The notes: generated by a model not told the origin, from the sequence alone. Shown: positions 1 through 45,553, numbered from the stretch's first letter. The stretch: 64,000 bases of DNA from Candidatus Omnitrophota bacterium (GCA_023247035.1 JAHFHG010000002.1:12090-76089), one strand, 5' to 3'. Translations and numbers: made by a program.

Positions 1-13
1 CGAAGAAATCTTT

Positions 14-1159: not shown

Positions 1160-1192
1160 AGGGCTCGAAGTTAAATAACATTTGCAACCGGA

Positions 1193-1981: not shown

Positions 1982-1987
1982 AGACTC

Positions 1988-3124: not shown

Positions 3125-3135
3125 TCCAAACTTCA

Positions 3136-5490: not shown

Positions 5491-7601
5491 CGGAGTTACT
5501 GAGCCGGACGGGAATTTGCGTGGATGTTGCCGTGCCTCTTCCGGTCGAGGGATTATTTTCATATCTCGCCCCGGTCCAGGAGGAGGGAAAAAAAATCCAG
5601 GCCGGCGTCCGCGTGCGTATTCCGTTCCGCAACCGCGAAATGATCGGCTATTTAGTCGGCCAGCGTCCGGCGCGGGAAGGGGAGAATCTCAAATCCGTGA
5701 TCCAAATCTTGGATGAAGCCCCTGTTCTTTCCCCGGTGATGCTTGAGCTGACCCGGTGGATCAGCAGTTATTACGGTTCAAGCTGGGGAGAGGCGATCGA
5801 GAACGCGCTTCCGCGCTGGGTAAAATATGGAAAAAAGGCGCTCGATCATTTGGAACGGCGCAAGGAGGAAGAAACCGGCGCAGGCCCGGCCCTTGGCGCT
5901 CCGGAGCCGGAGAACCGAAAACTTTCGGCCGCCCAGACCCGGGCTTTAGACGTTATCAAAAACGCTTTAAATACTCCTCACCCCAAACCGGTTTTGATCT
6001 ACGGAGTGACCGGGAGCGGGAAAAGTGAAATTTATATCCGGGCCATTCAAGAGGTGTTGAAAAGAAACCAATCCGCGATTTGCCTTGTGCCCGAGATCGC
6101 GCTCACCGAGCAGATCCGGCGTTTTTTCCTTCACCATTTCGGCGGCGAGCTGGAAATTCTGCACAGTAAATTGAGCGACGGGGAGAGGTTCCTTGCCTGG
6201 AAACGGCTTGAACAAGGAACCCGGAAGGTCGTCCTGGGTCCGCGCTCCGCCGTTTTTGCTCCTGTCCCGAACCTGGGCCTTATTATTATGGACGAGGAGC
6301 ATGAAGGGACTTATAAGCAGGAAACCTCACCCCGTTATCACGCCCGTGAAGTTGCGGCCTGGCGCGCCCGCCGCGAAAACGCGCTCTTGATGATGGGAAC
6401 CGCGACTCCCTCGCTGGAATCCATGTTCCGCGCGGAGCACGGTGAAATCGATTGTGTCCGCCTGGAGTCGCGGATTGATGAAAAACAAATGCCGCAGGTC
6501 CAGCTTTTGGATTTGAAGGATGAGATCAATCAGCGCAAAAAAGCCGCGATTTTGACGCCTCGCCTTATTGCCGAACTCGAGTTGAATCTGCGAAAAAAAG
6601 AAGGGACGCTCTTGCTGTTGAACCGCCGCGGATTTTCGACTCATATCAATTGCCCCCGATGCGGGTCGGTTGAGACGTGCAGCTCCTGCCACGTTTCACT
6701 GACTTTTCATCAGGAAGAAGAATCCCTTTTGTGCCATTACTGCAATTATCAGAAGCCCGTTTCGCGGGAGTGCTCCCAATGCCGAACCCCGGTCCTGCGT
6801 TTTGGAGGATTCGGCACGGAAAAAGTGGAAAGCGAGGTCGCCAGACATTTCCCCGCCGCGCGCATCGCCCGGATGGACGCCGACAGCGTGCGCAGGAAAG
6901 GCTCGCACGAAGAAATCCTCAAGGATTTCAGAGACCGTAAATACGACATCCTGATCGGGACGCAAATGATCGCCAAGGGTTTTGATTTTCCCCACGTCAC
7001 GCTGGTCGGAGTGATCCTGGCCGATGTCGGGCTCATGCTGCCGGATTTCCGGTCCGCGGAAAGGACTTTCCAGTTGCTGACCCAAGTCGCAGGCCGAGCG
7101 GGAAGGGGAGCGGCGCCGGGCCGGGTTTTTATTCAAACTTTTTCTCCGAGCCATCCGAGCATCCGGTTCGCCAAAGACCACGACTATATGAGTTTTTATA
7201 AACAGGAAAGCCGGGAGCGTTTTCAATACCGCTATCCGCCGGTTTGCCGCTTAATCAATATCATTGTCCGGTCGAAATCCGAAAATCCGGCCTACCTCCA
7301 CGCCCGCGCGATCCGCGATTCCCTGAAGCAGGCGCTTACGTTAAATCCTTCTGAGGAGGCCGCGGCGAACGGATCTTCCAATTCTTTTTCACCGCCCGAT
7401 CCTTTGCAATCCCTTGAGATTATCGGCCCTGCGCCGCTTCCTTTTTACAAACTCCGCGGGCATTACCGCTGGCATATTATGATTAAAATTCCCCGTCTTT
7501 CGGCGGAACTTCCGGCAGCCGTCAAGGCCGTTGTTTCCAAACTAAAAAAGCCTTCGAATGTCGCTTATGCCCTCGATATCGACCCGCTGAATATTCTCTA
7601 A
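5487..7601 (+). CDS. priA: Primosomal protein N' (PriA replication-restart helicase)
   Basis: Walker A GVTGSGKSE, a DEEHE box, a Cys4 zinc finger (CPRCGSVETCSSCH...CHYCNY) and a C-terminal helicase domain. GTG start at 5487 overlaps the UDG stop (GTGA). Confidence 0.85.
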   Translation: MTELLSRTGICVDVAVPLPVEGLFSYLAPVQEEGKKIQAGVRVRIPFRNREMIGYLVGQRPAREGENLKSVIQILDEAPVLSPVMLELTRWISSYYGSSWGEAIENALPRWVKYGKKALDHLERRKEEETGAGPALGAPEPENRKLSAAQTRALDVIKNALNTPHPKPVLIYGVTGSGKSEIYIRAIQEVLKRNQSAICLVPEIALTEQIRRFFLHHFGGELEILHSKLSDGERFLAWKRLEQGTRKVVLGPRSAVFAPVPNLGLIIMDEEHEGTYKQETSPRYHAREVAAWRARRENALLMMGTATPSLESMFRAEHGEIDCVRLESRIDEKQMPQVQLLDLKDEINQRKKAAILTPRLIAELELNLRKKEGTLLLLNRRGFSTHINCPRCGSVETCSSCHVSLTFHQEEESLLCHYCNYQKPVSRECSQCRTPVLRFGGFGTEKVESEVARHFPAARIARMDADSVRRKGSHEEILKDFRDRKYDILIGTQMIAKGFDFPHVTLVGVILADVGLMLPDFRSAERTFQLLTQVAGRAGRGAAPGRVFIQTFSPSHPSIRFAKDHDYMSFYKQESRERFQYRYPPVCRLINIIVRSKSENPAYLHARAIRDSLKQALTLNPSEEAAANGSSNSFSPPDPLQSLEIIGPAPLPFYKLRGHYRWHIMIKIPRLSAELPAAVKAVVSKLKKPSNVAYALDIDPLNIL

Positions 7602-20903: not shown

Positions 20904-22739
20904 TTGCCCAGCGCCCCGCCGCCTCAAGGAATCAGAATCCACAATGTGACGACGAATGTGACGGGCCGCACGCCGGTCGAGCGGATTGTCTCGGATCAAG
21001 TTTGGCAAAGCGAAATCCGGCCGGTTCTTTCCAGATTTCTTCAGGGCCCCGGAATCAAACATCACAAGGCCTTGATCGGGCAATGGATCATCGAATATGT
21101 TGGAAATGACCCGCATATGCACGAGTTTTTCGTCAAGAATTGGAAGCCGGCGCCGGCCGAAGCCTCGCCGCACATTCAAAGTTACGTTTTCACCGGGATT
21201 CAAGATCGTGAAGGGATGAAAAAGTTTCTGGGATTGAGGAGCGAGGAGGAGGTCCGTAATCACCGGGAAAATTTTTTGCGGATCATTCAAAATAATAAAA
21301 AATACCGCAGCGCGCTGCGCGATCCGAGACTCAAAGAGATCGAGAGGTATCCCGAAAACGAGCAGCTTGATATCGCGCTTTTCGCGCCCGCCACGGTCTA
21401 TGGCCCGCAGGAAAAAAGTTTTGTCAGCCTCAACACGAATTACTACGGCCAGCTCAAATCCAAGTCCTCGTTAGGGCCGCTTGAGGAATACCTGATCGAG
21501 AAAGCGCGCGTCACGCCGGAAGGAAAAATTTTGAATCCTGCGGACGTATGGCTTTCAATGCACGCGGGCTGCAGCGAATACACTGCGGAAAACGGCCAAA
21601 AACGGGGCATTGTCATTCTCGCGCCGACGGGAAGCGGAAAATCGACGCACGGCTACGGCCTGGTCGAGGCCAAAAAACGCAACCGCCTGCATTCCGACGA
21701 TTGGGTTTTTGTCAACCTCGCTTCGCGCGAAGTCATGATCTCCGAAAATCAGTTTTATATGCGCACCAATATCGCCGGCATTTACCCTCACTTAATTCCG
21801 CTGCTGGTCAATCAGCCCTTGGAAAACGCCGCCTTGAGTCCGGAAATCATCCGGCTTCTTGAGCATTTTGATTCGCCCGAAGATTTGCGTAACGCTTTCA
21901 CGGACGGCCGCGTCTCCGCTTCGGATTACCGCAAGATCAGGGAACAGATGATCGAAAATAACGCGGCCCGGGCCTTGATCGATCCGCGGCTCATGGTCGG
22001 CGCGGAAAAATTCATCGAAAAAACAGCGCTGACCGATCTCTTTTTGATGAAGAGGGATTATGACAGCCGGATGGTTTTAAAAATTCTCACGGAAGATGAA
22101 ACGATCGAGATCCTGACGTCGAAGGGAAATGTTTTTAATTATGTTTACGGAAAGTCCGACGCGGACGGCTACGGAATCCTGGAAGGCAGGACAACGGAAA
22201 TTTATTATAATCCTTATCTCTGCCAATGCGGCGTGGATGCCGAAAAAGGGAAAATCAGCGGGTTGGATAAGATCAGGATCGAAGCCTACCGCACGCTTGC
22301 GCGTCATCCGGAGATCCGCGTTTCGTGGGTCAATACGCGGCTTCCTGCGGCGCAATGCCAGTTCTGTCTCCGGCGGTTTCTGGAGGGCGGGATCGATTTT
22401 ATCCAGGTGGAAAAAGGCCGGACCGTCGAGCGGGAAATAATGGATTTGCTTCACCTGAATGAAAAGGAAAAATCGCCGCTTCCGGGGCGCAGAGAAATGG
22501 ACAGGACCGGGCTTTACGACCCCAGCGGGCAGGAGGTCGAGGTGATTGCTTTTTACTCGCAGGACAAAGCCGAAGAGGTCATTGCATTTTTTAAATCTGC
22601 GCAGGAGGGCGTAAAAAATCCGGTCGCCGGATATTTAAGCCGCCCTTTTGCGGAGGCTTCGTTTCGCGTGGAACTCCCAGAAACATTTTTCAAAAAATAC
22701 GCGCGCTTAGGCGTCGGCGAATTGCTTGGGAAGAATTAG
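20904..22739 (+). CDS. Hypothetical 611-aa P-loop protein with an HprK/PEPCK-like kinase core
   Basis: GIVILAPTGSGKSTHGYGL...RLHSDDWVFV resembles the HprK Walker A plus its downstream DD motif. Confidence 0.5.
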   Translation: MPSAPPPQGIRIHNVTTNVTGRTPVERIVSDQVWQSEIRPVLSRFLQGPGIKHHKALIGQWIIEYVGNDPHMHEFFVKNWKPAPAEASPHIQSYVFTGIQDREGMKKFLGLRSEEEVRNHRENFLRIIQNNKKYRSALRDPRLKEIERYPENEQLDIALFAPATVYGPQEKSFVSLNTNYYGQLKSKSSLGPLEEYLIEKARVTPEGKILNPADVWLSMHAGCSEYTAENGQKRGIVILAPTGSGKSTHGYGLVEAKKRNRLHSDDWVFVNLASREVMISENQFYMRTNIAGIYPHLIPLLVNQPLENAALSPEIIRLLEHFDSPEDLRNAFTDGRVSASDYRKIREQMIENNAARALIDPRLMVGAEKFIEKTALTDLFLMKRDYDSRMVLKILTEDETIEILTSKGNVFNYVYGKSDADGYGILEGRTTEIYYNPYLCQCGVDAEKGKISGLDKIRIEAYRTLARHPEIRVSWVNTRLPAAQCQFCLRRFLEGGIDFIQVEKGRTVEREIMDLLHLNEKEKSPLPGRREMDRTGLYDPSGQEVEVIAFYSQDKAEEVIAFFKSAQEGVKNPVAGYLSRPFAEASFRVELPETFFKKYARLGVGELLGKN

Positions 22740-22745
22740 CCCGCC

Positions 22746-24158
22746 ATGAATGAAAATTTCCACGCGGTTTTGATTGCCGGCACGCATTCCAGCGCCGGCA
22801 AGACCACCTGGTCGCTCGCTTTAATGGCGCTGGCCCGGAAAAAAGGACTCACGGTGCAGCCCTTTAAGGCGGGCCCGGATTACATCGATCCGGGTTTCCA
22901 TCATGAAATTTGCTCTCCGCGGCGTTCAAGAAACCTCGACCTCTTTTTCCTTTCAAAAGAAAAAATATCCGAGAGTTTTCATAACCGCTCTCGGGATACC
23001 GGCCTCGCGATTGTGGAAGGAGTCATGGGACTTTATGACGGCAAAGGGCCGAGCGGTACCGAAGGAAGCAGCGCGGAACTGGCGAAGATTTTGAGGCTTC
23101 CGGTTCTGTTAGTGATCGACGGCTCGAAAATGGCCGGGAGCGCGGCGGCATTGGTTTCAGGATTTAAAAATTTTGATCCCGCAGTTCATTTGGCCGGTGT
23201 TTTGATCAATCGCGTGCGGCCGGGGCATTTCCATTTGCTCAAGCGGGCGATTGAACTTTCGACGGGGCTCCCGTGTCTTGGATTCCTGCCCGAGGAGGAA
23301 GCCTTTTCGATTCCCGAGAGGCATTTAGGATTGACCCCCGCCGCTGAGACGCAAAATTGGAAAGTGAAAATCGACCGGGCCGCCTCTTTTCTTGAAAAGA
23401 ATTTGGATTGGGATGCTTTCCTCCGGATTTCCACGATTCCAAGACCGCCTGCGCAAGCTCAGCCTAAGGAGAAGGTTGAAAGGAATAAGTCTTCCCAAGA
23501 ACCGGTTAAGATCGGCGTGGCGCGTGACGCCGCTTTTTCCTTTTATTATGAAGACAACTTGGATCTCCTCAACGAGCAGGGAGCGGAGATTCTTTTCTTT
23601 TCTCCCCTTAAGGATCCTGTTTTGCCCGAAGGCTTGGATTTCCTTTATCTGGGAGGCGGATTCCCTGAAATTTACGCCCAGGAGCTCGCCAAGAATGAAT
23701 CGATGATAAAATCCGTCCGGGATTTTTACGCCCGGGGCGGTTTTATTTACGGCGAATGCGGCGGGCTTATTTATTTGGCGGAGGCTTTCTGCGATTCAGA
23801 CGGAACGGAATATCCTTTATTGAAATTGCTGCCGGGAAAAATCGCGATGACCCGCCGGTTGCAGAATTTCGGATACCATGAAATAAAAACGCAAACCGAT
23901 ACTTTCCTATTTTCCAAAAATACGGCGCTTCGATCTCATGAATTCCATTATTCGATTTGGAATCAGGAAGGAAACGCCTCTCCGGCGTATCAGATCGGAG
24001 ACCGGCCGGAAGGTTTTGCGTCCGGGCGGATTTTTGCAAGTTATCAGCACTTGCATTTTGGTTTGGATTCCCGGATTTTAGCCCGGCTGTTTGAAAGTTT
24101 AAAGGCTTCCCAAGATCTTAATCGCGGCAAACAAATAAAAAAGGAGGAAAAACAATGA
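22746..24158 (+). CDS. cbiA: Cobyrinate a,c-diamide synthase (CbiA/CobB)
   Basis: N-terminus AVLIAGTHSSAGKTT and a C-terminal GATase1 domain with a conserved Cys (GECGG). Confidence 0.85.
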   Translation: MNENFHAVLIAGTHSSAGKTTWSLALMALARKKGLTVQPFKAGPDYIDPGFHHEICSPRRSRNLDLFFLSKEKISESFHNRSRDTGLAIVEGVMGLYDGKGPSGTEGSSAELAKILRLPVLLVIDGSKMAGSAAALVSGFKNFDPAVHLAGVLINRVRPGHFHLLKRAIELSTGLPCLGFLPEEEAFSIPERHLGLTPAAETQNWKVKIDRAASFLEKNLDWDAFLRISTIPRPPAQAQPKEKVERNKSSQEPVKIGVARDAAFSFYYEDNLDLLNEQGAEILFFSPLKDPVLPEGLDFLYLGGGFPEIYAQELAKNESMIKSVRDFYARGGFIYGECGGLIYLAEAFCDSDGTEYPLLKLLPGKIAMTRRLQNFGYHEIKTQTDTFLFSKNTALRSHEFHYSIWNQEGNASPAYQIGDRPEGFASGRIFASYQHLHFGLDSRILARLFESLKASQDLNRGKQIKKEEKQ

Positions 24159-24511: not shown

Positions 24512-26041
24512 ATGAAAAAAGCTAAAAGCTTGATGGTGCTCGGCACGGGTTCCGGCGTCGGCAAGTCCTTTGTGGCCGCAGGGCTCTGCCGTTTGCTTTC
24601 CAATTCCGGATTTCGCACGGCCCCTTTCAAGGCGCAAAATATGTCCAACAATTCTTACGTGACGGAGGAGGGCGGAGAAATCGGCCGGGCCCAGGCCGTG
24701 CAAGCGGAGTGCGCCCGGGTCACGCCTCATACGGATATGAATCCGGTGCTTTTAAAACCGGCCTCGGACAACGGCTCTCAAGTGATTTTGCAGGGAAAAT
24801 CGATCGGGCATTTTAAAGCCCGCGAATTTTATTCTCAAAGGGAACGGATCGCAAAGGCCATCCGCGAATCTTACGAACGCCTGTCCGCTTCTTATGAAAT
24901 GATTATCTTAGAAGGCGCGGGAAGCCCGGCGGAAATCAATCTGAAAAAAAATGACCTCGTCAATATGCCGATGGCCCGGCTTGCAGGCGCGCGCTGCATT
25001 CTTGTCGGCGACATTGACCGGGGCGGTGTTTTCGCTTCCCTGATCGGGACGCTGAGCCTGCTGGAGGCTGAGGAACAGGAACGGATCGCCGGATTTGTGA
25101 TCAATAAATTCCGCGGCGATTTCTCGCTTCTTGAAGACGGCCTAGACTTTTTAGAGGAGCGGACGGGAAAAAAAGTCTGGGGCGTGCTTCCTTACGATCG
25201 CGATTTGTGGATCGAGGAAGAGGACGCGCTTGCGGTGGAGAATACGAATTTTCGTGATCCAGATAAACAAAAACTTGATAAACTTGATATCGCCGTCATT
25301 TTGCTGCCGCGGCTTTCCAATTTTACGGATTTCGAAATCCTCAAACACGATCCTTCCGTTCAGCTCCGTTATATCAAAAAACCCGAAGAAGTGGGGGAGC
25401 CTGACCTTTTAATTTTGCCCGGCACGAAAGCGACGCTTGCCGACTTGGCGTACCTTAAGGAAAAGAGATTGGATACAAAGATTCTGGATTTTGCGGATCG
25501 AGGCGGCAGGATCCTCGGCATTTGCGGGGGCTATCAAATGATGGGAACGCGCCTTCGTGATCCGCACGGTTTTGAGGAAAGGAATCAAGGGGAAATCGAA
25601 GGCCTTAAGCTGTTTAAAATGGCCACGGAATTTTATCCTGAAAAGGTGTTGCGAAAGGCCGAAGATTTTGTCGATTCGGAAATTTTCGGCGCGCGCGTTT
25701 CGGGAAAACTGGAGTGTTACGAAATCCATATGGGGCAAAGCACGCTTGAAGAGTCTTATCAACCGTTCGGAACTTGCGGCGCTATCCATCCTTCAGGAAA
25801 AATATTGGGCACGTATTATCACGGATTATTCGACAGCGGGGAATTTCGCGAGTCCTTTTTGAATGCGCTCGCTCAAAGCGCGGGGAAGCGGAGAGCCGGC
25901 GGAGGGCATTTACAATCTGCAGGCCAACTCAAGGAAATTCATTATGAGCGTCTCAGCCGGCTTCTTTTGCAGCGCCTTAATCTGAATTTATTAAGCGAGG
26001 CGTTGGGGATTACGGAATTTCATGCGGTTCCTCAGGCGTAG
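24512..26041 (+). CDS. cobQ: Cobyric acid synthase
   Basis: SLMVLGTGSGVGKS start and a GATase-like C-terminus (ICGGYQMMG). Confidence 0.9.
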   Translation: MKKAKSLMVLGTGSGVGKSFVAAGLCRLLSNSGFRTAPFKAQNMSNNSYVTEEGGEIGRAQAVQAECARVTPHTDMNPVLLKPASDNGSQVILQGKSIGHFKAREFYSQRERIAKAIRESYERLSASYEMIILEGAGSPAEINLKKNDLVNMPMARLAGARCILVGDIDRGGVFASLIGTLSLLEAEEQERIAGFVINKFRGDFSLLEDGLDFLEERTGKKVWGVLPYDRDLWIEEEDALAVENTNFRDPDKQKLDKLDIAVILLPRLSNFTDFEILKHDPSVQLRYIKKPEEVGEPDLLILPGTKATLADLAYLKEKRLDTKILDFADRGGRILGICGGYQMMGTRLRDPHGFEERNQGEIEGLKLFKMATEFYPEKVLRKAEDFVDSEIFGARVSGKLECYEIHMGQSTLEESYQPFGTCGAIHPSGKILGTYYHGLFDSGEFRESFLNALAQSAGKRRAGGGHLQSAGQLKEIHYERLSRLLLQRLNLNLLSEALGITEFHAVPQA

Positions 26042-27450: not shown

Positions 27451-28326
27451 ATGCGGAATAAACGCTTTGAGATCGCCAATATTCCGTTTAGTTTCCTTCA
27501 CGATTCCTTTCATATTACCGACTGGCCGAACCCTTTTTATTTCCCGTTTCAAACTCAGAAGCCCGAGTTGATCAGGATACAAACCCGCCGCCTGAGAAAT
27601 ATTCCCTCCCGCGCTTCTTTTTCTGACCTGCGCTTCGACGGCGGTGCGCATTGGCGCCTTTTCGAGAATCACGGGCAATTCGAAGTCCATCTTTTCGATC
27701 CCAAAACCAAAGCGCACGACCGGACGGCGCGTATCTCGCCTGATTTTACGGAAGTGGAGCTGATCCATTGGAAAAAGTCTCATTTCCTGAACTGGATCCT
27801 GCGTCCGCTTGCCGAGATTCTGCTCGTCCATTATCTTGCGTCCCGGGAAGGTTTGCTGGTTCACGCAGCGGCGGTGCGGGACGGCGATCAGGCCTATCTT
27901 TTCGTGGGCCGCTCCGGCGCCGGAAAAACCACGATTTCAACGTTTTGGGCCGGCGTCGAGGGCGACGTTTCTGTTTTGGGAGACGAGCGGCTCGTGGTGC
28001 GGCGCGAGGCCGGCGAATGGTTTGCGTACGGCACTCCCTGGCCGGGAATGGGTTTCCGCTGCAACAATGAACGCGTGCGGATCAGCCGCGTTTTTTTTAT
28101 CCGCCACGGGAGTGAGCATGAAATCATCGAGCAGGGTCCCGCCCTTTATTTTAATGAATTGTTCACGCAGGTTTTTTCCTCTTTTTGGAACCTTGAGGCG
28201 CTCGATCAAATCACGCGGACTTGCCAGAAAGCTGTGGAGGAAATTCCCTGCCGCCTGCTGGCCTTCGCGAAAGCGCCGGATGTGACCGGGTTTGTCAGGA
28301 ATTTTAACTGCGCCGCGCAGCCTTAA
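27451..28326 (+). CDS. HprK-related P-loop serine kinase-like protein
   Basis: AYLFVGRSGAGKTTIS...VLGDERLVV parallels the HprK C-terminal kinase core (Walker A plus acidic motif). Confidence 0.6.
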   Translation: MRNKRFEIANIPFSFLHDSFHITDWPNPFYFPFQTQKPELIRIQTRRLRNIPSRASFSDLRFDGGAHWRLFENHGQFEVHLFDPKTKAHDRTARISPDFTEVELIHWKKSHFLNWILRPLAEILLVHYLASREGLLVHAAAVRDGDQAYLFVGRSGAGKTTISTFWAGVEGDVSVLGDERLVVRREAGEWFAYGTPWPGMGFRCNNERVRISRVFFIRHGSEHEIIEQGPALYFNELFTQVFSSFWNLEALDQITRTCQKAVEEIPCRLLAFAKAPDVTGFVRNFNCAAQP

Positions 28327-29385: not shown

Positions 29386-29850
29386 TTAGGGCGGGCTTCC
29401 GGAATGCAATCGCCTTAAAATCCGCGAAGGCGCGTCGAGAAACCAGGGATTGGTCGGTGAAAGGAGGGCCTGCCAAAAGCGAAGAAGGAACGGCCGTTTT
29501 TCCAGGTCGAAAATTTTTTCTCCTCTTTGAACCTGCGTGATCTTTCCCACCAGCGGAGAAATTCCGGCGCGTCCTTTGAAGAAAGGGACAAAACAGGTGT
29601 TCGCATGAAAATTTTCACCGGATATTTTTCTCACCGCGACATCGCCGAATCGAAGGCTCGATTCGTCTGTTTTCTTGATCGTAACGAGGTCGCCCCGGCG
29701 CACCACCGGCCACATGCAATTTCCAAAGAGTTTCATTTGAACGGAGCCGGAAAATTCCAATTCCGAAAGAAGAATCGAGGCCTGCAGGGGTTGGGAAAGG
29801 GCCTTTTCTTCAAGAGGCGGATTAAGGGACGGCACGGCCAAATTTAGCAC
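29386..29850 (-). CDS. S24/S26-like (LexA/signal-peptidase fold) peptidase with Cys in place of the nucleophile Ser
   Basis: GNCMWPVVRRGDLVTIKK ... FGDVAVRKI mirrors G(D/N)SMxP...GDlvlV...GDivVaK of S24 peptidases. Convergent with the rSAM gene, gap 8 nt. Confidence 0.5.
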   Translation of the reverse strand: MLNLAVPSLNPPLEEKALSQPLQASILLSELEFSGSVQMKLFGNCMWPVVRRGDLVTIKKTDESSLRFGDVAVRKISGENFHANTCFVPFFKGRAGISPLVGKITQVQRGEKIFDLEKRPFLLRFWQALLSPTNPWFLDAPSRILRRLHSGSPP

Positions 29851-30020
29851 GGCGGAGCCGGCTTCCGCAACGGATCTTTTGCCTTCGCCGGATTTTCAAT
29901 TCTTTCTAACATTCAGGATCATTTTCAGTCTTCGGCTCAAAAGCGCATTCTGCGCATTTGATCTTACAAAACGAACCGCTATAATTAATGAAACACGGGC
30001 GGCAGGAAATCGAACCCTTC

Positions 30021-33000
30021 ATGAAAACCATCTCTTTATTCCAGAAACCCAGCGCGATTTTTTTAATCTTTTCTTTAAGCCTTTCCCAAAGTCCCTCGTA
30101 TGCCGCTGCCGCGCCGGCGCCTCCGCTGGCGGTTTCTGAGCGCTCCCGGGCGCTTCTTTTTCTTCCCGAAGAACTTGGCGAGATCGAAGAATCCTTTCAG
30201 GGATCGAACGGAAAAACCGTGATCTTCATTCAAGACGCCCACGATTCCCTCGAAGCGCAGGAAAATATCGCCAAGACTATTCAATACCTGGTGGACAAGT
30301 ACGGGGTGAAGACTGTTTTTGAAGAAGGCTATGAAGGTCCTGTTCCCACGGATGATTATTTCGGCTTCATCAAAGATCCGTCCGTCAAAGAGAAAGTTTC
30401 TTACTTTTTATTAGATAAACTCCGCCTCGGCGGCGCGGAATACGCACACATCAACCGCTTTCACAACTTGTCATTCCCGCACGCGTTAAGCGGGAATCCA
30501 AATTTTAGGTCCCCGATAGAAACATTCGGGGACGACAAAAAACGTGTCGATTTCAAACTGATTGGGGCAGACAATATAAAGTTACATCTTGAGAATATCG
30601 ATTGGTATCGCCAGAATGCCAAGCATAAAGAAGAAACTGGAAGAGATTTGACTATTCTGCAAAATGAAATCGACAAACTTGCCAACCGGTATTTTCCTAA
30701 GGAACTCAAAGAATGGATGAAGCTTAAGAAAAGGTTTGATGAGAAACAAATTGATCTTTTGGATTATTTAAAGCGGACAATACAAGTCCCTCATCGAGAA
30801 TCCATAGACCATAAACTTTACCCCAATCTTTCGCTTCTCCTTCAAGCAGAACACACTCAAGACAAAGAAGTCCTAGAGAAAGTGAAAACCATTGAAGCCA
30901 AGATTCTTTTCGAGGAAATCGATTCGTTGGAAAACGCCGCCGCCGGCCCATTCCTACAAAATGGAACAGACCGGAAAATCTTCCAATATTACAAAGGAAT
31001 AAATCTTCTCAAAAGACTCAACGAGATTGAGATTACGCCCGCTGAATATGAGGCGGTCAAAGCGCAGCTTCAACATCTCAGCACCCAGGAACTGGCCCAA
31101 TTTATTGTCCAGCAAACGAATAAATCCATCGTCCTTTCCAAACGATGGGAGGAAAATATTGAAAGCGCCATTCGGTTTTATCAAATCTCACGAGCCAGAG
31201 ATTCTGCGATTGCCGAGCGACTGAATGATTTTCTTAAAAATCATGATGAAAAAGTGGCTGTCCTTGTCTTTGGAGGATTTCATAAAGAGAGGATTACAGA
31301 ATTGTTGAGAAAGAAAGGACTCCCTTACTATATAGTTTCTCCTCGAATAATGAACGTCGACAATAAGCATAAGGAACTCTACGCGCATTTAATGACAAAG
31401 GGATATTCGCTTTTCCCCGTTGCGGCAAATGTTGCTAAGGCAGCGCGTTTAGCAGGAGAGATCGAGCTCGCGGAAATGGGCGGCCAGAACGCAAAGTCAG
31501 AACTCCGAGCGTACCATGCGGCAATCACTAACATTGTTTCTTCATTGGTCTCCAATCGACCCAATCAAACATCTCGAGAACTGCTCGATCGTTTGATTAA
31601 CGGACGATTGATACACGAAGTTCTAAAAGTATCCAAACAAGCAATGGGAAAACGCCGATCCGAACTAAGAAGTAAAGAATCGGATTTTGCTTTAAGAGAA
31701 AAACGCCGTGATTATCTCAAGCGGCTAATGAATCAAGAAAATAAGCAATGGACGTTGGATGAGTTAGCAAACGCTACAGGTCAATCAACAGGACAGATTG
31801 TTAAGGATTTGCGATATTTGAATCTTTTTAAGCCCTCAAATCACCTAAATTTAGATGCCGAACGCATAGACCGAAGAAGACAGTGGGGATTACCAGATTA
31901 TTCTGACCTCGATAAGCTTTTACCTCGCTTGGATGAAGAATTTGCATATCTTCATGGAGAGGCTCTTTTTAATTTTTTAGCTCAAAAAGGCCGCGAGAAT
32001 GACCCCGTAAGCATGGAAGCGGCTATTTACGGCTTCTATAAATTTGTTGGAGAAAAAACCCCCGGTAATATTTCAGAACGAGGGCGATTGCTTGGTGAAC
32101 GCATTTATCACTATCTGAGGTTAAGAGAAAGTATGCCTTCTGACGGCCTGCGTCGAAATCCAGATGTTGAGTTCGATATTGGTATGGCAGAAAAAAGGAA
32201 GCGGGAGTCACGGCTTCCAAAATTTGGAAATATAAAAACAAGGAGGCCGAAGAAGAAAGTTTCTTTTTCGGAAGCACAGCAAATTATGGAAGAAAAAAAT
32301 TTACATTTAGATCAATCAATCGCATTCGTTGCGTTGTCCACGGCAGAAAATGAAACTTTATTTCGAGCGCTTAAATCAAGCGAATTGGAAGAGTCCGAGC
32401 GAAGACAAATTTATGATTATTTGATTCAGAAGCATGTAGGGTTTGTCGGCTGGTGGATCAAACATAAGATGCCGCCTTGGTATTTTGAACATTTTAACTT
32501 CGAAGAACTTTTAGCTTTTGGCCAAATTGGCCTTATGAAAACGATTGAAAGATATGATTTCAAAATGGGGCGGCGCTTTACCAGTTATGCCGAATGGTGG
32601 ATTCGCCATTCTATCCAACGCTCCATAGAGAAAAAAACACATAAATCTTTAAATGTCAGGCGTGATGAGGATAGCCCGGAGTGGATTGATACTTTGTCGG
32701 ATTCAAAAGATCAATCGGAAGAAGAATTATGGCCGGAACTATTTTCCAGTCTTAGGCATCTCGATAGTCGGTCTCGCATTATGTTGAGCTTGCGTTACGG
32801 GATTGGATCAGTAAGAACATACAATCTTCGAGAAATTGGCTTAATGTTTGGTGTAACTCACGAGCGTGTTAGACAAATTACAGAAAGAGCAGTTGAAAAG
32901 TTAAAACGCTTGGTTGGAAAAGTAACGGTTGATGATTCTTCTCAAGACCATACCGATGTTTTTTTATTCGAGGCTATGGAGTTAGAGCCAGAGAATCCAC

Positions 33001-36000
33001 TTTTCAAGCCACTAAGCCATCTCGGAGTTAAAAAGCTTGACCGGATTCGAGAAGTTCTTTCAAAAGAAAATCGCTTCAACTCGGAAATGCTGATGAGGAT
33101 TTTTAGGTCACGCGGCCAGTATGTGATAGCTCCATCGAAATATTTATGGGGTCTGCCTGCGGGTTTGCTTGAAACCGGCGGTGACACTTCCCATCATTTT
33201 GGATCGTGGAATGAAGAAGGTGGAAGACATAACATAGATTTACAAAAACCCAAAAAGATTCATTTTTCCAACGCACTCACAACCACAACCGAAATCATAA
33301 AAAGGTATCCTTATGCTCGGTATCTACTGCCTCCTGAAGAACAACTATTGCTGGCCTCTCAGGCTCAAGGAGAAAGGAGCCGATTCTATGCTTTGGGTAA
33401 GACATTGCAGTGGATTGGACTTTCTCCGCAAGATTTTATTATTTGGCTTGTTGAAAATAAAAAATATTTAGATCAAGAAATCGTTGATTTTATCGCACAA
33501 TCACCACTTTCTAAACGTCCTCGATACGAGCTAACGGCATCCCGCACAGGTGAGCATCTTCATGGGTCTTTACCAAGACCACGTACTGACCGAAAGATTG
33601 CAACGAAATGGATTTCAACTGAAGAAACCAGCTACACGCTAATCACACCTGCTGAATTGGCGGACCGCTTCCCTTCTGCCGAACCCTTCTTGGATAAACT
33701 CGAACCTCAATTACTTCTTGAGGCGGATTCGTCCGAGCATGATGAAATTAAATACTATTCTTTTGTTGAAGATGGACATCATACAAAAATTCTAATAAGG
33801 ATCAATAAAAGAACCGGCGAAATCCAAAGTCCTCATGATGGCCCAATCGGTTTTAGAAAGGAAATTTTGGATTTTGTAAGAAAAGGTGAGTTTGGCAATA
33901 AGCAAAAGCCTCCTGTTACCGCGCCTTTTGAAATGCACGCCGGATCACGGCATTTTATTTATTTCGGAACGATGGGGAAAGGTTCCATTGGCTTGAGTAT
34001 GAAGGGAGTGAAACCTAACACGCGTGTATCAGGAAGCGCTGTTCATTTGGAGCATGCTCCTCTTGGAATGGGGCCGCAATGGCTTTTAAGACTCACTGTT
34101 CATTTGAAAAGACCAAGAGTTGTTTATGCGAGATTCAAACGCTCTGGAACCCGCTTAGGTTTATTTAAAAAATCCCCTCAAACTTATATCGGAGCTTTTG
34201 TCAAACTTGGGAAATGGAATCAGGAAAAAATCCAGCCATTCCCTGAAAATGAAATCGAAATTACCGCGAGTTCCAAAGGACGTTTGGAACTTGGAAGCAA
34301 TGGCGATGGAGAGCGGATTGTTATTCACTTACCACTTTTACCCAAAGATCATAAAGTTTTAATTCGAAAAGTCCGCAATCAAGAAGATGGACAACAGCTC
34401 TTGGTCGTTCATACCCGCAATCCTGCTTATCGATATAGAAAATTTTATTATCGATTCACGAATCGTGGCTATCACACCCGAAGATACCACGAGGAAGTAA
34501 AGGACATAAGTCCCACGGCTAGAAGGAAGCTTAGCTATGAAGAAATTGCAAAGGCACAAGAAGATTTGAGAAGCCGAGAAGGAGCAGAGGCAAACTTATG
34601 GCGCGATCCCGAAAAGATTGCTTATGAGCTTGACCTATTCGACGCTTATTATCTTGTTTCGGAAGTTCAAAGAATAAACGCTTCTTTAGTTGCTCAAGAC
34701 ACAGCTAATTTGCCGCCTCTCGAAATAGACACCTCAAAGATTGTTGAGCTGCCGACTCCGGCTTACGATCAAGTAGGAGACGTTTATCATGCTGTTCCAG
34801 AATCTTCTGAGCGACCGGAGAAATCCGAGAAACCAGTCAAACCTAAACCATTATCCCCTTTAAGACTTGCTCAAAAAAGATTGGAAGAAGCTGAAAAAAA
34901 AACATTAGCTGAACGTTTGAAGGTTGGCTTTCGAGATGTGGGAGAAAGCGGTCGGTTTTTAGATTTGGGCGCAGGAAAGGGTGATTTAACCGCTGAACTT
35001 GCTGGACAATTTCAAGGTGGGGTTGCAGTCGAAATAAATGAAGATCGAGTCGAGCAGCTACGGCAGAGAAAAATTCCAAATCTTAATATTTGGGACATGG
35101 ATTTTTTTGATTATATGGAGATGGCGATTAAAGGGAATCAGCTTTTTGATGCGATTCTCATTTCACATGCTCTTTTATTCATTAAATTTGATCGCCGGGA
35201 CGCTTTCTTAAAAGATGTTCTATCAAGACTTAAGCCGAATGGAAAATTAGCGATTATTTTAAATGGCAGTAAAATTGAAGAGAGAAACCAAGTTCAGTTG
35301 CGAGCAAAGCTCATGAGAAAGCATGAGGCGCTAGCAGGAGACAACCCATCAACCAATATTGAAAGCAAACTGCGACAAATCGGCTATGGGGTACAAACCG
35401 AAAGAGTCAGAATCATTCATGAGACTCCTTCCAGAGACGAAATGATTTCTATTGTAAAAGCAATATTGCCACGCGAAGACCGTTTTCGTCTGTCGAATAT
35501 CACTGGATTTGTCGATTCAGTCCTGAAATTACCTGGAGAAGAAAAGTACCGCCTCTATGTTGATCAAGATATTTTATGGATAACACATCCTCGTTCTGAG
35601 GTTAGAAAGCAAGAAAATGTATTTGCAATGGTGTCTGTCAACGATTGGCAAAACTTTAATCGAACTAATCAGAATACCGAGGCTACGGCCACCAAAGCCG
35701 TCGTTTTTATAGATGGTTCCGTCGATAGCAAAGATGCCAAGCAGCGGGCGGAAGAATTAGCGGTGCTGGCCGCAGGTAATCCGAACCGAACGATTGTGGT
35801 TTATAATGCGGACAAAGTTTTTAAAAATAAAGGCGGTGAAATGGCGGAACTTTTAAAGTCGTTTGGTCTCGCCAATGTCAAGTTCGCTGCGGGTGAGTTG
35901 TCCGAAGCCCTCAAGCCCTACCAATTCCGGGATCAAGTTGATTTGGTGCACTACTCGGCAAGCGAAGAGGAGGCTGTTTTTGTTCAAGCCTCCGTTGGGA

Positions 36001-36209
36001 AATGGCTGGCGCAAAAACTGACCCGATTTGTCGGAGGGCCCGGCGCCTTAGGATACGGAATAAAATATTTGCAGGCTGTGAAATTGGGCAAGCCTGTGGA
36101 AGGTATCACGCCCGAGAACGGCTACTACGCCGTTTCCCCAGGCGCTTCGGAGTGGATGCGAAGCCTTTATCGAGCTCGGTTCGCGACCGTTTTCGCTCAA
36201 GCGGCGTGA
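30021..36209 (+). CDS. Giant multidomain protein (about 2060 aa): signal-peptide-like N-terminus, TraB/GumN/TIKI-like domain, sigma-70 region 2 plus region 4 module, central unknown region, class I SAM-methyltransferase motif, unknown C-terminus
   Basis: Uninterrupted 6.2 kb frame in AT-rich DNA. Motifs IFIQDAHDS...VLVFGGFHKERITELLRKKGLPYYIV; GQIGLMKTIERYDFKMGRRFTSYAEWWIRHSIQRSI; LREIGLMFGVTHERVRQITERAVEKL; FLDLGAGKGDLT. Confidence 0.7.
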   Translation: MKTISLFQKPSAIFLIFSLSLSQSPSYAAAAPAPPLAVSERSRALLFLPEELGEIEESFQGSNGKTVIFIQDAHDSLEAQENIAKTIQYLVDKYGVKTVFEEGYEGPVPTDDYFGFIKDPSVKEKVSYFLLDKLRLGGAEYAHINRFHNLSFPHALSGNPNFRSPIETFGDDKKRVDFKLIGADNIKLHLENIDWYRQNAKHKEETGRDLTILQNEIDKLANRYFPKELKEWMKLKKRFDEKQIDLLDYLKRTIQVPHRESIDHKLYPNLSLLLQAEHTQDKEVLEKVKTIEAKILFEEIDSLENAAAGPFLQNGTDRKIFQYYKGINLLKRLNEIEITPAEYEAVKAQLQHLSTQELAQFIVQQTNKSIVLSKRWEENIESAIRFYQISRARDSAIAERLNDFLKNHDEKVAVLVFGGFHKERITELLRKKGLPYYIVSPRIMNVDNKHKELYAHLMTKGYSLFPVAANVAKAARLAGEIELAEMGGQNAKSELRAYHAAITNIVSSLVSNRPNQTSRELLDRLINGRLIHEVLKVSKQAMGKRRSELRSKESDFALREKRRDYLKRLMNQENKQWTLDELANATGQSTGQIVKDLRYLNLFKPSNHLNLDAERIDRRRQWGLPDYSDLDKLLPRLDEEFAYLHGEALFNFLAQKGRENDPVSMEAAIYGFYKFVGEKTPGNISERGRLLGERIYHYLRLRESMPSDGLRRNPDVEFDIGMAEKRKRESRLPKFGNIKTRRPKKKVSFSEAQQIMEEKNLHLDQSIAFVALSTAENETLFRALKSSELEESERRQIYDYLIQKHVGFVGWWIKHKMPPWYFEHFNFEELLAFGQIGLMKTIERYDFKMGRRFTSYAEWWIRHSIQRSIEKKTHKSLNVRRDEDSPEWIDTLSDSKDQSEEELWPELFSSLRHLDSRSRIMLSLRYGIGSVRTYNLREIGLMFGVTHERVRQITERAVEKLKRLVGKVTVDDSSQDHTDVFLFEAMELEPENPLFKPLSHLGVKKLDRIREVLSKENRFNSEMLMRIFRSRGQYVIAPSKYLWGLPAGLLETGGDTSHHFGSWNEEGGRHNIDLQKPKKIHFSNALTTTTEIIKRYPYARYLLPPEEQLLLASQAQGERSRFYALGKTLQWIGLSPQDFIIWLVENKKYLDQEIVDFIAQSPLSKRPRYELTASRTGEHLHGSLPRPRTDRKIATKWISTEETSYTLITPAELADRFPSAEPFLDKLEPQLLLEADSSEHDEIKYYSFVEDGHHTKILIRINKRTGEIQSPHDGPIGFRKEILDFVRKGEFGNKQKPPVTAPFEMHAGSRHFIYFGTMGKGSIGLSMKGVKPNTRVSGSAVHLEHAPLGMGPQWLLRLTVHLKRPRVVYARFKRSGTRLGLFKKSPQTYIGAFVKLGKWNQEKIQPFPENEIEITASSKGRLELGSNGDGERIVIHLPLLPKDHKVLIRKVRNQEDGQQLLVVHTRNPAYRYRKFYYRFTNRGYHTRRYHEEVKDISPTARRKLSYEEIAKAQEDLRSREGAEANLWRDPEKIAYELDLFDAYYLVSEVQRINASLVAQDTANLPPLEIDTSKIVELPTPAYDQVGDVYHAVPESSERPEKSEKPVKPKPLSPLRLAQKRLEEAEKKTLAERLKVGFRDVGESGRFLDLGAGKGDLTAELAGQFQGGVAVEINEDRVEQLRQRKIPNLNIWDMDFFDYMEMAIKGNQLFDAILISHALLFIKFDRRDAFLKDVLSRLKPNGKLAIILNGSKIEERNQVQLRAKLMRKHEALAGDNPSTNIESKLRQIGYGVQTERVRIIHETPSRDEMISIVKAILPREDRFRLSNITGFVDSVLKLPGEEKYRLYVDQDILWITHPRSEVRKQENVFAMVSVNDWQNFNRTNQNTEATATKAVVFIDGSVDSKDAKQRAEELAVLAAGNPNRTIVVYNADKVFKNKGGEMAELLKSFGLANVKFAAGELSEALKPYQFRDQVDLVHYSASEEEAVFVQASVGKWLAQKLTRFVGGPGALGYGIKYLQAVKLGKPVEGITPENGYYAVSPGASEWMRSLYRARFATVFAQAA
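30470..30536. repeat. Second copy of the double-hairpin unit, located inside the coding sequence of the giant ORF (read through in frame)
   Basis: TTGTCATTCCCGC...GCGGGAATCC...GTCCCCGATAGAAACATTCGGGGACGAC aligns with 14389-14445. Confidence 0.5.
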
Positions 36210-36270: not shown

Positions 36271-36696
36271 CTAATTCAACTTCACGACGTCGCTGACGCG
36301 GTCGCGGTGAATCTTCACAATGAAGGCCCCTGCGGCGAGGCGAGGCTCGATCGTGCGTTCCGTGATTTTATCCACGTAGGGAAGATACCCTTTGTAGTAA
36401 ACAAAATACCAGTCCTGCGAAACGTTCTGCTCAATCGTGCGGATTTCCTGCGGCTGCCCCAAAAGACTCAGGACCTCGTTAGCGCTTTTGCCTTTGAGGA
36501 ACAACTTTCCATTGGCGATGATCCGCCGGTTGGTCATTTGATCCCTGCCGAACTGGTCGCCTCCCTTGAAAAAGGTGTAGGGCTTCTCCTGCAGGGGCTG
36601 CCAAATCCCGATGCCCGCGCAGCCGCTTAAAAATAAAACAAAACAAAAAAGCAAAAGGGAATGCAGAACTTGTAGATTCGAAATTGGGGTCTTCAT
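36271..36696 (-). CDS. Small lipoprotein, hypothetical
   Basis: Lipobox LFLSGCAG after a hydrophobic signal. Confidence 0.5.
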   Translation of the reverse strand: MKTPISNLQVLHSLLLFCFVLFLSGCAGIGIWQPLQEKPYTFFKGGDQFGRDQMTNRRIIANGKLFLKGKSANEVLSLLGQPQEIRTIEQNVSQDWYFVYYKGYLPYVDKITERTIEPRLAAGAFIVKIHRDRVSDVVKLN

Positions 36697-44167: not shown

Positions 44168-45553
44168 TTGCGCCTTTATTCTTTAGTCCCGCCGAAAATG
44201 GCCGACATAACTCTTATGCGAATTTTGTCGGCGATAACCAGCGAGCCGTTAGTTGTTTTGATGAAGCGAGCCCTTTCGCGTTTTAATTATGAATGGGAGG
44301 ACGTGGAAAACGGCCTCGACGCGTTTCAGCGGGTCATGACCCGGAAATTTGATCTCGTGATCCTGGAATTTGACCTGCCTAGGATGAGCGCCCTTGAGAT
44401 TTTGCGCCGGTTCGGATCGCTTGAACATTTTAACGCCCCGCCCGTCATGGTCCTTACACTTACCGAAGACCAGCGGCTCCAAATTGAATCCGGCCATTTT
44501 CACAGAACGGAGATCGTCGCGCGGCCGATGGCGATCCGGAAATTTGTCGGCAGGGTCCAGCAAATCTTGCACCAGAGCGTGCGCGTTGCGTGTTTAGGCG
44601 GGGGAACGGGGCTCTTTACCCTCCTGTTAGGATTGAAGTCCCTTTCCGGCATCAGCCTCGCCTCCATTGTAAGTATGAGTGACGACGGCGGCTCCACGGG
44701 AAAATTAAGAGATATGTTCGGAATTTTGCCTCCCGGCGATATCCGCCGCAGTCTCGTCGCTCTTTCCACGGCGCCGGATCTTCTCAATGAGTTGATGCAA
44801 TACCGTTTCAAGCGCGGGGAGGGCCTCGCCGGGCACACGCTGGGCAACTTGTTCTTGACCGCGCTTTCCGAAATGAGGGGATCGATGCCGCAAGCCGTAA
44901 AGGCGATCAGCGAAATCCTCAATATTCAAGGAGAGGTGATCCCTGTCACGGACACGGTCAATACCTTGAAGGCCAGACTCGAAAACGGTTCGACCCTTGA
45001 AGGGGAGCGCCGCATTGACCTTTTCGAGGGGCACGATCCGCGCGTAAGGATCAGCGAGCTCTGGCAGGAGCCTGCCGCAGAGGCCAATCCCGAGGCCTTG
45101 GAAGCGCTTTTTAATGCGCGTTTTATTATTTTAGGCCCCGGCGACCTTTTCACCAGCGTGATCTCCAATTTAATCGTAGGCAGCATTGCCGAAGCCATTT
45201 GTTCCAGCCGCGCCAAAAAAATTTATATTTGCAATGTAATGACCAAACCGGGCGAGACCACGGATTTCAGCGTCGGGGATCACGTCCGGGAAATCCTCAA
45301 ATACCTGAAAAAAGATGCGCTGGATTATGTCCTGTGTTCGTCCACTGCATTTTCAGAAACGTCGCTTGAAAAATACGCCGAGAAAAGTCAGATTCCGGTC
45401 GTGGAAAATTTTCCGGATCAGCTTCGCAGCCTCACCAAGGCGGAGGTGTTGTGGGCTGACATGGGATCGGAAAGCGAACTCGTCCGGCACGACAGCGTCA
45501 AATTAGCGGCCGAATTGAAGAAAATTTTGGAAAAAGAAAACAGGCACCTTTAA
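44168..45553 (+). CDS. YvcK/CofD-family protein (gluconeogenesis factor-like) with an N-terminal degenerate receiver-like domain
   Basis: VACLGGGTGLFTLLLGLK...SMSDDGGSTGKLR is the YvcK signature. The first 130 aa are CheY-like, with Glu at the phospho-acceptor position (DLVILEFDLPRM). Confidence 0.75.
   Translation: MRLYSLVPPKMADITLMRILSAITSEPLVVLMKRALSRFNYEWEDVENGLDAFQRVMTRKFDLVILEFDLPRMSALEILRRFGSLEHFNAPPVMVLTLTEDQRLQIESGHFHRTEIVARPMAIRKFVGRVQQILHQSVRVACLGGGTGLFTLLLGLKSLSGISLASIVSMSDDGGSTGKLRDMFGILPPGDIRRSLVALSTAPDLLNELMQYRFKRGEGLAGHTLGNLFLTALSEMRGSMPQAVKAISEILNIQGEVIPVTDTVNTLKARLENGSTLEGERRIDLFEGHDPRVRISELWQEPAAEANPEALEALFNARFIILGPGDLFTSVISNLIVGSIAEAICSSRAKKIYICNVMTKPGETTDFSVGDHVREILKYLKKDALDYVLCSSTAFSETSLEKYAEKSQIPVVENFPDQLRSLTKAEVLWADMGSESELVRHDSVKLAAELKKILEKENRHL

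Follow-up and report, generated by a model that had tools for sequence, protein, structure and literature searches.

How does a sigma factor come to lie some 800 residues inside a giant protein that looks as if it were made for export? The question is raised by a gene in a stretch of 64,000 nucleotides (nt) from a Candidatus Omnitrophota bacterium (GCA_023247035.1 JAHFHG010000002.1:12090-76089), analysed as a whole and called here the window, where positions 30021-36209 form a single open reading frame (ORF). An earlier note on this DNA had taken it for one real 6.2-kb ORF and for a highly unusual fusion of TraB/GumN-like, sigma-70 and methyltransferase parts. We found that the gene is real and that its product is a cysteine-free, signal-peptide-bearing modular protein; it is not a one-off, since it belongs to a large Omnitrophota family, one without earlier description. 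The most interesting aspect of the locus is the grammar of this family, along with the question posed by a sigma factor in an exported-looking protein. The parts of the frame, with residues counted from the Met at 30021, are the following:

30021-36209, plus strand: complete ORF by frame reading, 2,062 amino acids (aa) and a stop codon
30021-30104, plus strand: putative Sec-type signal peptide, read from sequence (residues 1-28)
30153-31490, plus strand: head, an Ere/ChaN/TIKI/TraB fold with a large helical insert (residues ~45-490)
31494-31508, plus strand: linker motif copy 1, KSELR, at the end of the head (residues 492-496)
31656-31670, plus strand: linker motif copy 2, RSELR (residues 546-550)
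35592-35606, plus strand: linker motif copy 3, RSEVR, at the start of the tail (residues 1858-1862)
35607-36206, plus strand: tail, a conserved alpha/beta (Rossmann-like) domain ending in ...ATVFAQAA-COOH (residues 1863-2062)

The claim of one real ORF stood: the frame was confirmed, an NCBI record (P0001) is identical to the product in its 2,073-aa form, and head and tail are both canonical for the family. The next-longest ORF of the window reaches little more than a third of this length.

Relatives were sought among 5.8 billion proteins, with 170 matches; the family counts given below were made on 120 proteins, query included. Nearly all matches came from Candidatus Omnitrophota, and the family members range from 1,141 to 3,561 aa. 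In BLAST mapping all 119 non-self matches overlapped residues ~1-500 of the query, each time at the relative's own N-terminus, and ~9 relatives additionally matched its final ~180 residues, each at the extreme C-terminus. The middles are unrelated; among them are PPDK_N, NUDIX, sugar epimerase, radical SAM, HAD, GT4, amylase, CPBP, HEAT, WD40 and methyltransferase domains. What the members have in common is a Sec-type signal peptide, a head of ~450 aa and, after a cargo that varies, an alpha/beta tail of ~200 aa. The query shows all that defines this head-cargo-tail order: its head is N-terminal, motif copies follow the head and precede the tail, and the last two residues of the tail fit [AS]A. 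Its head is 38-62% identical to the heads of most relatives (34-35% for the most divergent, P0116), and its tail is 55% identical to the tails of P0003 and P0004. A scan of one genome per GTDB species gave at least 167 loci; those with names were all from Omnitrophota except one metagenome-assembled genome (MAG) labelled Planctomycetales, and the copy number per MAG was three to five or more.

The borders of the modules carry a five-residue motif. The pattern [RK][SA]E[VLMAIF]R was observed 520 times in the 120 proteins, against 12.3 +/- 3.8 times in residue shuffles, an enrichment of about 40-fold; the residue before S-E-hydrophobic-R was Arg in 410 of 457 cases, with flanks rich in Ala, Gly, Ser, Pro, Glu and Asp. 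Within the window, the strict form RSE[VLMAI]R is confined to this ORF. A copy lies at most 130 residues past the head core in 102 of the 120 proteins (two copies in 36 of the 120), and in 76 of the 89 complete proteins a copy lies 165-260 residues from the C-terminal end; motifs are spaced by a median of 307 residues, the size of a domain. In P0005, P0013 and P0051 the motifs flank Pfam domains and interrupt none; for example, P0005 has motifs at 2997 and 3354 on either side of PseudoU_synth_2 (3008-3152). P0116 has two sigma modules, each occupying a block that runs from one RSELR to another, at 508-933 (425 aa) and 1290-1680 (390 aa), and these blocks match a free sigma factor in size. The motif falls in segments of low predicted local distance difference test score (pLDDT) in both AlphaFold models. 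We take R-S-E-hydrophobic-R to be a probable processing site.

At the level of codons, 178 motif sites in 83 loci showed synonymous variation with both Ser and both Arg codon families in use, indicating selection on the peptide. The same codon usage ruled out the motif as a conserved DNA site, e.g. a recombination signal. We also observed that copies 1 and 2 of the query (31494-31670) are ~50 residues apart; if both were cut, they would bracket a peptide of ~45-50 aa.

Several features point out of the cytoplasm. At the N-terminus of the query, Lys2 and Lys9 form the n-region, AIFLIFSLSL the h-region, and the c-region reads SYA, then AAA past the putative cut; nearly all 120 members share a basic n-region, a hydrophobic core of 11-15 residues and an (S/G)YA or AFA site. 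Cysteine is absent from all 2,062 residues of the query, where the frequency in neighbouring genes (0.95%) would predict about 20. Across the family the median is 0.1%, and P0005 lacks cysteine over its 3,561 residues. Such depletion is typical of proteins leaving the cytoplasm, and we infer that it points to an extracytoplasmic fate here as well. Many relatives have segments of transmembrane (TM) length after the head or in membrane-protein cargo such as CPBP; the query has no further hydrophobic segment of this length, and none between head and sigma module. At the other end, the C-terminus fits hydrophobic-x-x-[AS]-A-COOH in 89 of the 120 proteins (AA in 52, SA in 37), with the query's own copy encoded at 36183-36206. 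Apolar C-termini are recognised by tail-specific and ClpX-type proteases; the resemblance of the terminal Ala-Ala to the tags of such proteases is only a lead.

An alignment of the head from 28 family members gave 38 invariant columns. The invariant residues include D72-A-H74, E102-G-x-E105-G, A-E140-x-A-H143-x-x-R146, E377, R393-D394 and G418-G-F-H421; H450 is nearly invariant. Fold comparison gave, in descending order of score, erythromycin esterase EreC (9.0), two Ere-like 'succinoglycan biosynthesis' proteins (9.0 and 8.8), ChaN (8.7), type III effector HopBA1 (8.3), MARTX effector RRSP (8.2) and a TraB family protein (8.0). All of these belong to the Ere/ChaN/TIKI/TraB superfamily, whose alpha/beta fold, built on a parallel beta-sheet core, the head shares; one reason for the moderate scores is a helical insertion of ~190 residues that splits the core. 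The catalytic set of the superfamily is 2His/2Glu, with His85-Glu113 in Bcr135 and Glu3900, His3902, Glu3930 and His4030 in RRSP (PMC6254334). The spacing of 28 between H74 and E102 is that of the catalytic His-Glu pair in both Bcr135 and RRSP, and H421 stands within a GxxH-type motif. From conservation, the head is likely to have hydrolytic activity; we infer that this activity may be that of a peptidase.

In Pfam the head had no TraB match, and Cofac_haem_bdg reached 22.1-25.1 bits (cut-off 27.7) in only 2 of the 28 heads; a profile built on the head alignment matched no PDB sequence either. As the head lies below every Pfam threshold and has no PDB profile match, it is a new family of the superfamily. 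The TraB/GumN-like assignment of the earlier note thus holds at the superfamily level, by fold comparison, and not for the Pfam family TraB/PrgY/GumN.

Between RSELR 546 and RSEVR 1858 the cargo of the query is one block of 1,300 aa with no motif inside. Its parts are:

31704-31823, plus strand: possible winged-helix helix-turn-helix (HTH), weak (residues 562-601; Pfam HTH_11, E 0.054, below cut-off)
32415-32639, plus strand: sigma2, regions 2.1-2.4, with the melting and -10 recognition segment FTSYAEWWIRHSIQRSI kept (residues 799-873)
32751-32906, plus strand: sigma4, the HTH of region 4.1-4.2 (residues 911-962)
33048-33854, plus strand: region 'a', uncharacterised, with counterparts only in P0125 and P0127 (residues ~1010-1278)
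33855-34487, plus strand: two 'PQW' repeats of ~105 aa without earlier description (residues 1279-1384 and 1385-1489)
34941-35270, plus strand: core of a class I methyltransferase dependent on S-adenosylmethionine (SAM) (residues 1641-1750)

The sigma assignment was borne out by domain models, all above their cut-offs: Pfam Sigma70_r2 (PF04542) at 825-873 with 27.5 bits (cut-off 24), Sigma70_r4 (PF04545) at 911-962 with 39.9 bits (cut-off 24.1), and NCBIfam TIGR02937 at 799-963 with 73.2 bits (cut-off 42.9). Among PDB entries the best matches were primary sigma factors, RpoD/SigA, at 60-76 bits. In region 2.3-2.4 the query segment FTSYAEWWIRHSIQRSI aligns to FSTYATWWIRQAITRSI of RpoD/SigA (RpoD 354-401) with F-x-x-Y-A-x-W-W-I-R conserved; the HTH of region 4.2 is conserved too, and sigma4 aligns to RpoD 459-545. 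Between the two, the query passes from RpoD 401 to 459 over 5 residues and ~57 RpoD residues have no counterpart, i.e. sigma3 is absent. Pfam gave no match to Sigma70_r3 or r1_2, and all RpoD/RpoS equivalog scores were far below their cut-offs. With RpoD/SigA as best matches and sigma3 missing, the module is RpoD-like in sequence and extracytoplasmic function (ECF)-like in layout. It is thus like known sigma-70 factors in its WWIR melting segment and sigma4 HTH, being nearest to groups 1-2 (RpoD/SigA/RpoS) by sequence and to group 4 (ECF) by layout. It is unlike them in its position 800 aa into a signal-peptide-bearing protein, in lacking sigma3 and region 1.1, and in having no anti-sigma partner; the Pfam scan of the query found no anti-sigma domain.

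Searched alone, the sigma segment found one ordinary sigma factor as relative, with 36% identity over 24% of its length, and the whole 1,306-aa cargo found only the query itself. The earlier note had proposed to look for gene fission in relatives; no orthologue standing alone was seen for either the sigma or the mid region, within the limits that a word pre-filter set on both searches. As cargo, sigma-70 domains are present in four family members (the query, P0009, P0053 and P0116). In head-bearing P0009, sigma region 4 is accompanied by an SNF2-related domain, sub-threshold at 21.3 bits (cut-off 24.9).

An exhaustive HMMER scan of residues 975-1640 against 1.84 billion representative proteins returned 12 matches. 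The large proteins with the PQW repeat are:

P0136, 3,915 aa: sigma r2-r3-r4, SNF2 helicase, PQW repeats, HTHs, DnaJ
P0127, 1,397 aa: region a, PQW repeats, SAM methyltransferase
P0125, 1,547 aa: region a, PQW repeats, HTH_23/HTH_3
P0128, 3,924 aa: PQW repeats, 13 RSExR motifs, C-terminal SA

That a cargo set with a DNA and transcription theme recurs speaks for a working sigma module, in one nucleic-acid context or another. The PQW repeat has the pattern ...KPP...G...PQW(V/I)L...Y(R)FT... and is matched by no Pfam family; it also makes up small signal-peptide-bearing proteins of three to six repeats (P0126, P0129, P0131, P0132 and P0134). Just after the signal-peptide-like N-termini of PQW-repeat proteins we saw a second short motif, (H/N)TLRP(I/M)A, at ~33-40 of P0125 and ~24-31 of P0126, which may be another processing or sorting signal.

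The methyltransferase reported by the earlier note was recovered with its signature intact: Pfam Methyltransf_25, 31, 11, 12 and 23 all scored above cut-off at 1641-1750, and the glycine-rich motif I reads LDLGAGKG. On sequence reading no motif specific to DNA methyltransferases was seen; the enzyme is a generic one of class I, and PADLOC mad2 and PHROG 4752 are generic methyltransferase matches.

The composition of the gene is a mosaic. At 43%, its content of G and C (GC) is below the 51-54% of the chromosome, and most of the gene lies in one tract:

30400-35600, no strand: GC-poor tract of ~40-42% GC in 400-nt windows, with 32-37% at third codon positions (GC3)

By segment, GC3 amounts to 47% for the head, 32-37% for the cargo segments and 52% for the tail; neighbouring genes have 56-64%. 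At the left edge GC falls from ~50% to ~40% near nt 30,400, around the end of the most conserved stretch of the head (GAEYAHINR, nt 30432-30458); at the right edge it is back at 47-53% from nt 35,600, and the RSEVR of the tail starts at nt 35,592. This suggests that most of the gene was replaced by recombination with a lower-GC paralogue or allele, via the conserved 5' region of the head and the tail border. Such replacement would also explain the shuffling of cargo.

Upstream of the gene, one site bears on its start:

29958-29985, plus strand: promoter-like TTGATC-16 nt-TATAAT (10 of 12), directly upstream of the gene

An in-frame ATG at 29988 on the plus strand opens the alternative product of 2,073 aa. 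The promoter-like site is the region's top consensus match, in a region where the number of such sites is not above shuffle expectation; read as a consensus match only, it would put the transcription start past the ATG at 29988, which favours the start at 30021.

What, then, would such a protein do? With somewhat more belief than doubt, we propose that it is exported by Sec and cut at its RSExR linkers, by its own head or in trans, releasing a sigma-PQW-methyltransferase cargo of ~145 kDa. The underlying frame, restricted to Omnitrophota, would join a Sec signal, a hydrolase head of the TIKI/Ere/ChaN fold, a variable cargo and an alpha/beta tail by disordered R-S-E-(V/L/M/A/I)-R linkers. Once the protein has left its producer through Sec, the head or a trans-acting protease would separate head, cargo and tail at these linkers. 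The cargo, which requires SAM, DNA and RNA polymerase, would then work in another cytoplasm, or would stay inert until processing. Its diversity would stem from recombination, with the conserved 5' part of the head at one end and the tail border at the other, and the GC-poor tract at 30400-35600 would be the trace of one such event.

Several points weigh against this proposal. Rather than a cleavage site, the RSExR motif could be a docking, modification or structural element. TIKI and RRSP are peptidases, but the superfamily also takes in esterases (Ere) and the haem binder ChaN, and the fold of the head is therefore no proof of peptidase activity; furthermore, Asp72 replaces the first catalytic Glu of RRSP (Glu3900). 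A sigma factor released by proteolysis, as the earlier note had imagined, agrees with the family in that the motif lies at module borders throughout and brackets the sigma modules of P0116; it does not agree with the window, where there is no motif between sigma module and methyltransferase, and a free sigma factor would therefore not be released from the query. ATP, SAM, NAD and Fe-S, which cargo of the family needs, are absent outside the cytoplasm, so that, with export, the place of cargo action becomes a question in itself. No secretion or delivery apparatus linked to the gene was found in the window or in the relatives' contexts; those of P0116, P0009, P0018 and P0012 held no conserved partner gene, protease or secretion system. 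Finally, the GC mosaic could in principle reflect a chimeric metagenome assembly.

The need of cargo domains for cytoplasmic cofactors is a point in favour of an alternative, in which the protein stays in the cytoplasm as an uncleaved multi-enzyme scaffold, with the N-terminus as an incidental or peripheral anchor and the motif in a structural or docking role, e.g. for a sigma-tethered methyltransferase at promoters. The query would fit it, having sigma module, PQW repeats and methyltransferase in one uninterrupted block, and so would P0127, which holds region a, PQW repeats and methyltransferase together. We nevertheless consider a scaffold unlikely, given the family-wide conservation of the signal-peptide pattern, the extreme cysteine depletion and the presence of the motif in disordered linkers at module borders; for larger long proteins of Omnitrophota, too, 94% are predicted to have a signal peptide or TM helices (bioRxiv 10.64898/2026.06.07.730766). 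Retention in the producer is also implied by a membrane-tethered or latent sigma factor, which takes up the tethering idea of the earlier note: the N-terminus would be an anchor, the head would sense or cleave, and the sigma fragment would redirect the cell's own RNA polymerase. Intact sigma2 and sigma4 with RpoD-like melting and HTH residues, catalytic-type residues conserved in the head, motif-delimited sigma modules in P0116, and a chromosomal gene with its own promoter-like site all accord with it. However, without a hydrophobic segment from head to sigma module both would be on one side of the membrane, and no anti-sigma domain was found by Pfam. The earlier note had left the N-terminus as signal peptide or membrane anchor; the signal-peptide pattern held up, family-wide, and the positive charges before a short h-region of 10-11 residues and the AXA-type site are typical of a cleaved signal rather than an anchor. 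The absence of cysteine, as in secreted proteins, and its depletion across the family point outside, and a frame that carries dozens of unrelated metabolic enzymes is no device for sigma regulation. Taken as a whole, tethering appears quite improbable.

Two further explanations were weighed. Missed stops, frameshifts or a chimeric join could have made one ORF out of separate TraB-like, sigma and methyltransferase genes; the genome is of metagenome type and the GC-poor tract has sharp edges. Yet the ORF starts with the canonical signal peptide and head of the family and ends, in frame 6.2 kb on, with a canonical tail that closes in AA; >100 relatives, independent and drawn from different samples, keep the head-cargo-tail frame at 1.1-3.5 thousand aa, and stand-alone orthologues of the sigma or mid region were not found within the limits of the searches given above, so that we consider such an artefact very improbable. 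No better standing belongs to an anti-phage defence protein of MzaA type or a polyvalent protein of a phage or conjugative element. The best NCBIfam and PADLOC matches by E-value are MzaA and mad2, PHROG 351 (a phage sigma family) is matched as well, and the GC of the gene is atypical; but MzaA scored 79.6 bits against a cut-off of 800 and covered generic sigma regions only. MzaA/mad2 identity was rejected as generic domain similarity. Around the gene we found no Mza partners, tRNAs, integrase or flanking direct or inverted repeats in the window, the head has no relative among 2.9 million viral contigs, and family genes are solitary amid housekeeping genes in the window and in relatives; a chromosomal setting of this kind, without viral relatives, argues that this is not a mobile-element protein, and the explanation is largely refuted. 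The polyvalent or effector-type reading of the earlier note does accord with the family grammar of conserved head, swappable cargo, linker motif and conserved tail, minus the mobile-element origin.

Omnitrophota, most of them ultra-small, are widespread bacteria that have not been cultured and are suspected to live on other cells. One could speculate that for such ultra-small, host-dependent bacteria the family is a delivery platform: the exported protein would be cut by its head, and the secreted sigma factor would bind the RNA polymerase of a host or prey and reprogramme its transcription. If true, this would be the first bacterial sigma factor acting as a trans-kingdom or trans-cell effector; we regard this extension of the export proposal as distinctly unlikely. 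The sigma cargo in any case sharpens the question of the workplace, being useless without cytoplasm, DNA and RNA polymerase. Delivery of cargo to another cell would amount to a new way of host takeover; otherwise, the arrangement would be a new way of sigma latency.

The closest known proteins by phylum are the giant proteins of Omnitrophota, of 10 thousand aa and above and up to 147 thousand aa, described as Archaeovorin-type or 'multi-enzyme' (bioRxiv 10.1101/2023.11.21.568195; bioRxiv 10.64898/2026.06.07.730766). The family shares with them the repertoire of methyltransferase, NUDIX, PPDK_N, radical SAM, HAD, GT, HEAT and HATPase domains, and likewise puts unrelated enzyme domains on one chain bearing a signal peptide or TM segment; for the giants, cutting by internal peptidases was suggested in that work. 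Giant proteins have been defined by at least 10 thousand aa (Nielsen & Lui) or by genes over 20-30 kb (Seymour; West-Roberts), whereas the query has 2,062 aa and the family 1.1-3.5 thousand aa, in a strict head-cargo-tail grammar. The N-terminal features reported for the giants are also different, being C39, S8 or SecA-like. A term search of the giant-protein papers gave no mention of a TIKI/Ere head, a conserved tail, an RSExR motif, cysteine depletion or sigma cargo; literature searches, on the motif and on Omnitrophota together with polyproteins, esterases or sigma factors, gave no prior description.

By function, the closest analogy is with MARTX toxins: large secreted chains with conserved ends, recombining effector modules and cleavage at inter-domain linkers, among whose effectors RRSP has the TIKI fold of the head described here. 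Unlike this family, MARTX toxins use glycine-rich repeats, a cysteine protease domain (CPD) activated by inositol hexakisphosphate (InsP6) and type I secretion, and their targets are eukaryotic cells; the query gave no CPD or RTX-type Pfam match, and no gene of a type I secretion system is annotated in the 64-kb window. Here the signal is of Sec type, and the TIKI-fold domain is the constant head, not cargo. Within the TIKI/Ere/ChaN/TraB superfamily the head stands apart by its insertion, by the Asp for Glu exchange and by the lack of a Pfam family at cut-off. The polyvalent proteins of Iyer, Burroughs and Aravind (2017) reportedly carry methyltransferase, SNF2 and peptidase domains on one chain, and are said to be processed and to act in the recipient; in contrast to the present genes, which are chromosomal, multi-copy and Sec-signal-bearing, theirs are encoded by mobile elements and travel with DNA.

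The huge multi-enzyme proteins of Omnitrophota are a recognised puzzle without a mechanism. The present family makes a grammar testable in a smaller and more tractable set: hydrolase-fold head, tail, five-residue motif, scarce cysteine and exchanged cargo. It also offers experimental handles, namely a candidate cleavage motif, three or four candidate catalytic residues and a protein of 2 thousand aa that can be expressed.

As to the surroundings, the neighbours of the gene in the window encode PriA, DsbD, CobB/CobQ, radical SAM, DUF255 and DAO proteins, a CDF transporter, histidine kinases and Mur ligases. In a locus of a relative (L003, positions 1-5996; logan:SRR14271346_2357) we saw an ORF of >4,052 aa that runs off the locus, has no Pfam match on record and sits 4 kb upstream of family member P0012. 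For P0012 and another member, P0083, the table of relatives gives the same length of longest contig, 97,616. Paralogues and other giant genes may therefore cluster.

ORFs without Pfam match adjoin the locus at 20904-22739 (plus strand, 611 aa), 27451-28326 (plus strand, 291 aa) and 29386-29850 (minus strand, 154 aa), the last lying immediately upstream of the giant gene on the opposite strand. Converging on the 3' end of the giant gene is a 141-aa ORF at 36271-36696 (minus strand), also without a Pfam family, with a lipoprotein-type N-terminus (LFLSGC). Two adjacent paralogous amidotransferases of CobB/CobQ type (CbiA + GATase_3) at 22746-24158 and 24512-26041, both on the plus strand, indicate a capacity for cobalamin biosynthesis in the genome, which would be notable if the organism is one of the reduced, host-dependent Omnitrophota. 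Further downstream, at 44168-45553 on the plus strand, a response-regulator receiver is fused to the N-terminus of CofD (2-phospho-L-lactate transferase), an unusual regulatory fusion.

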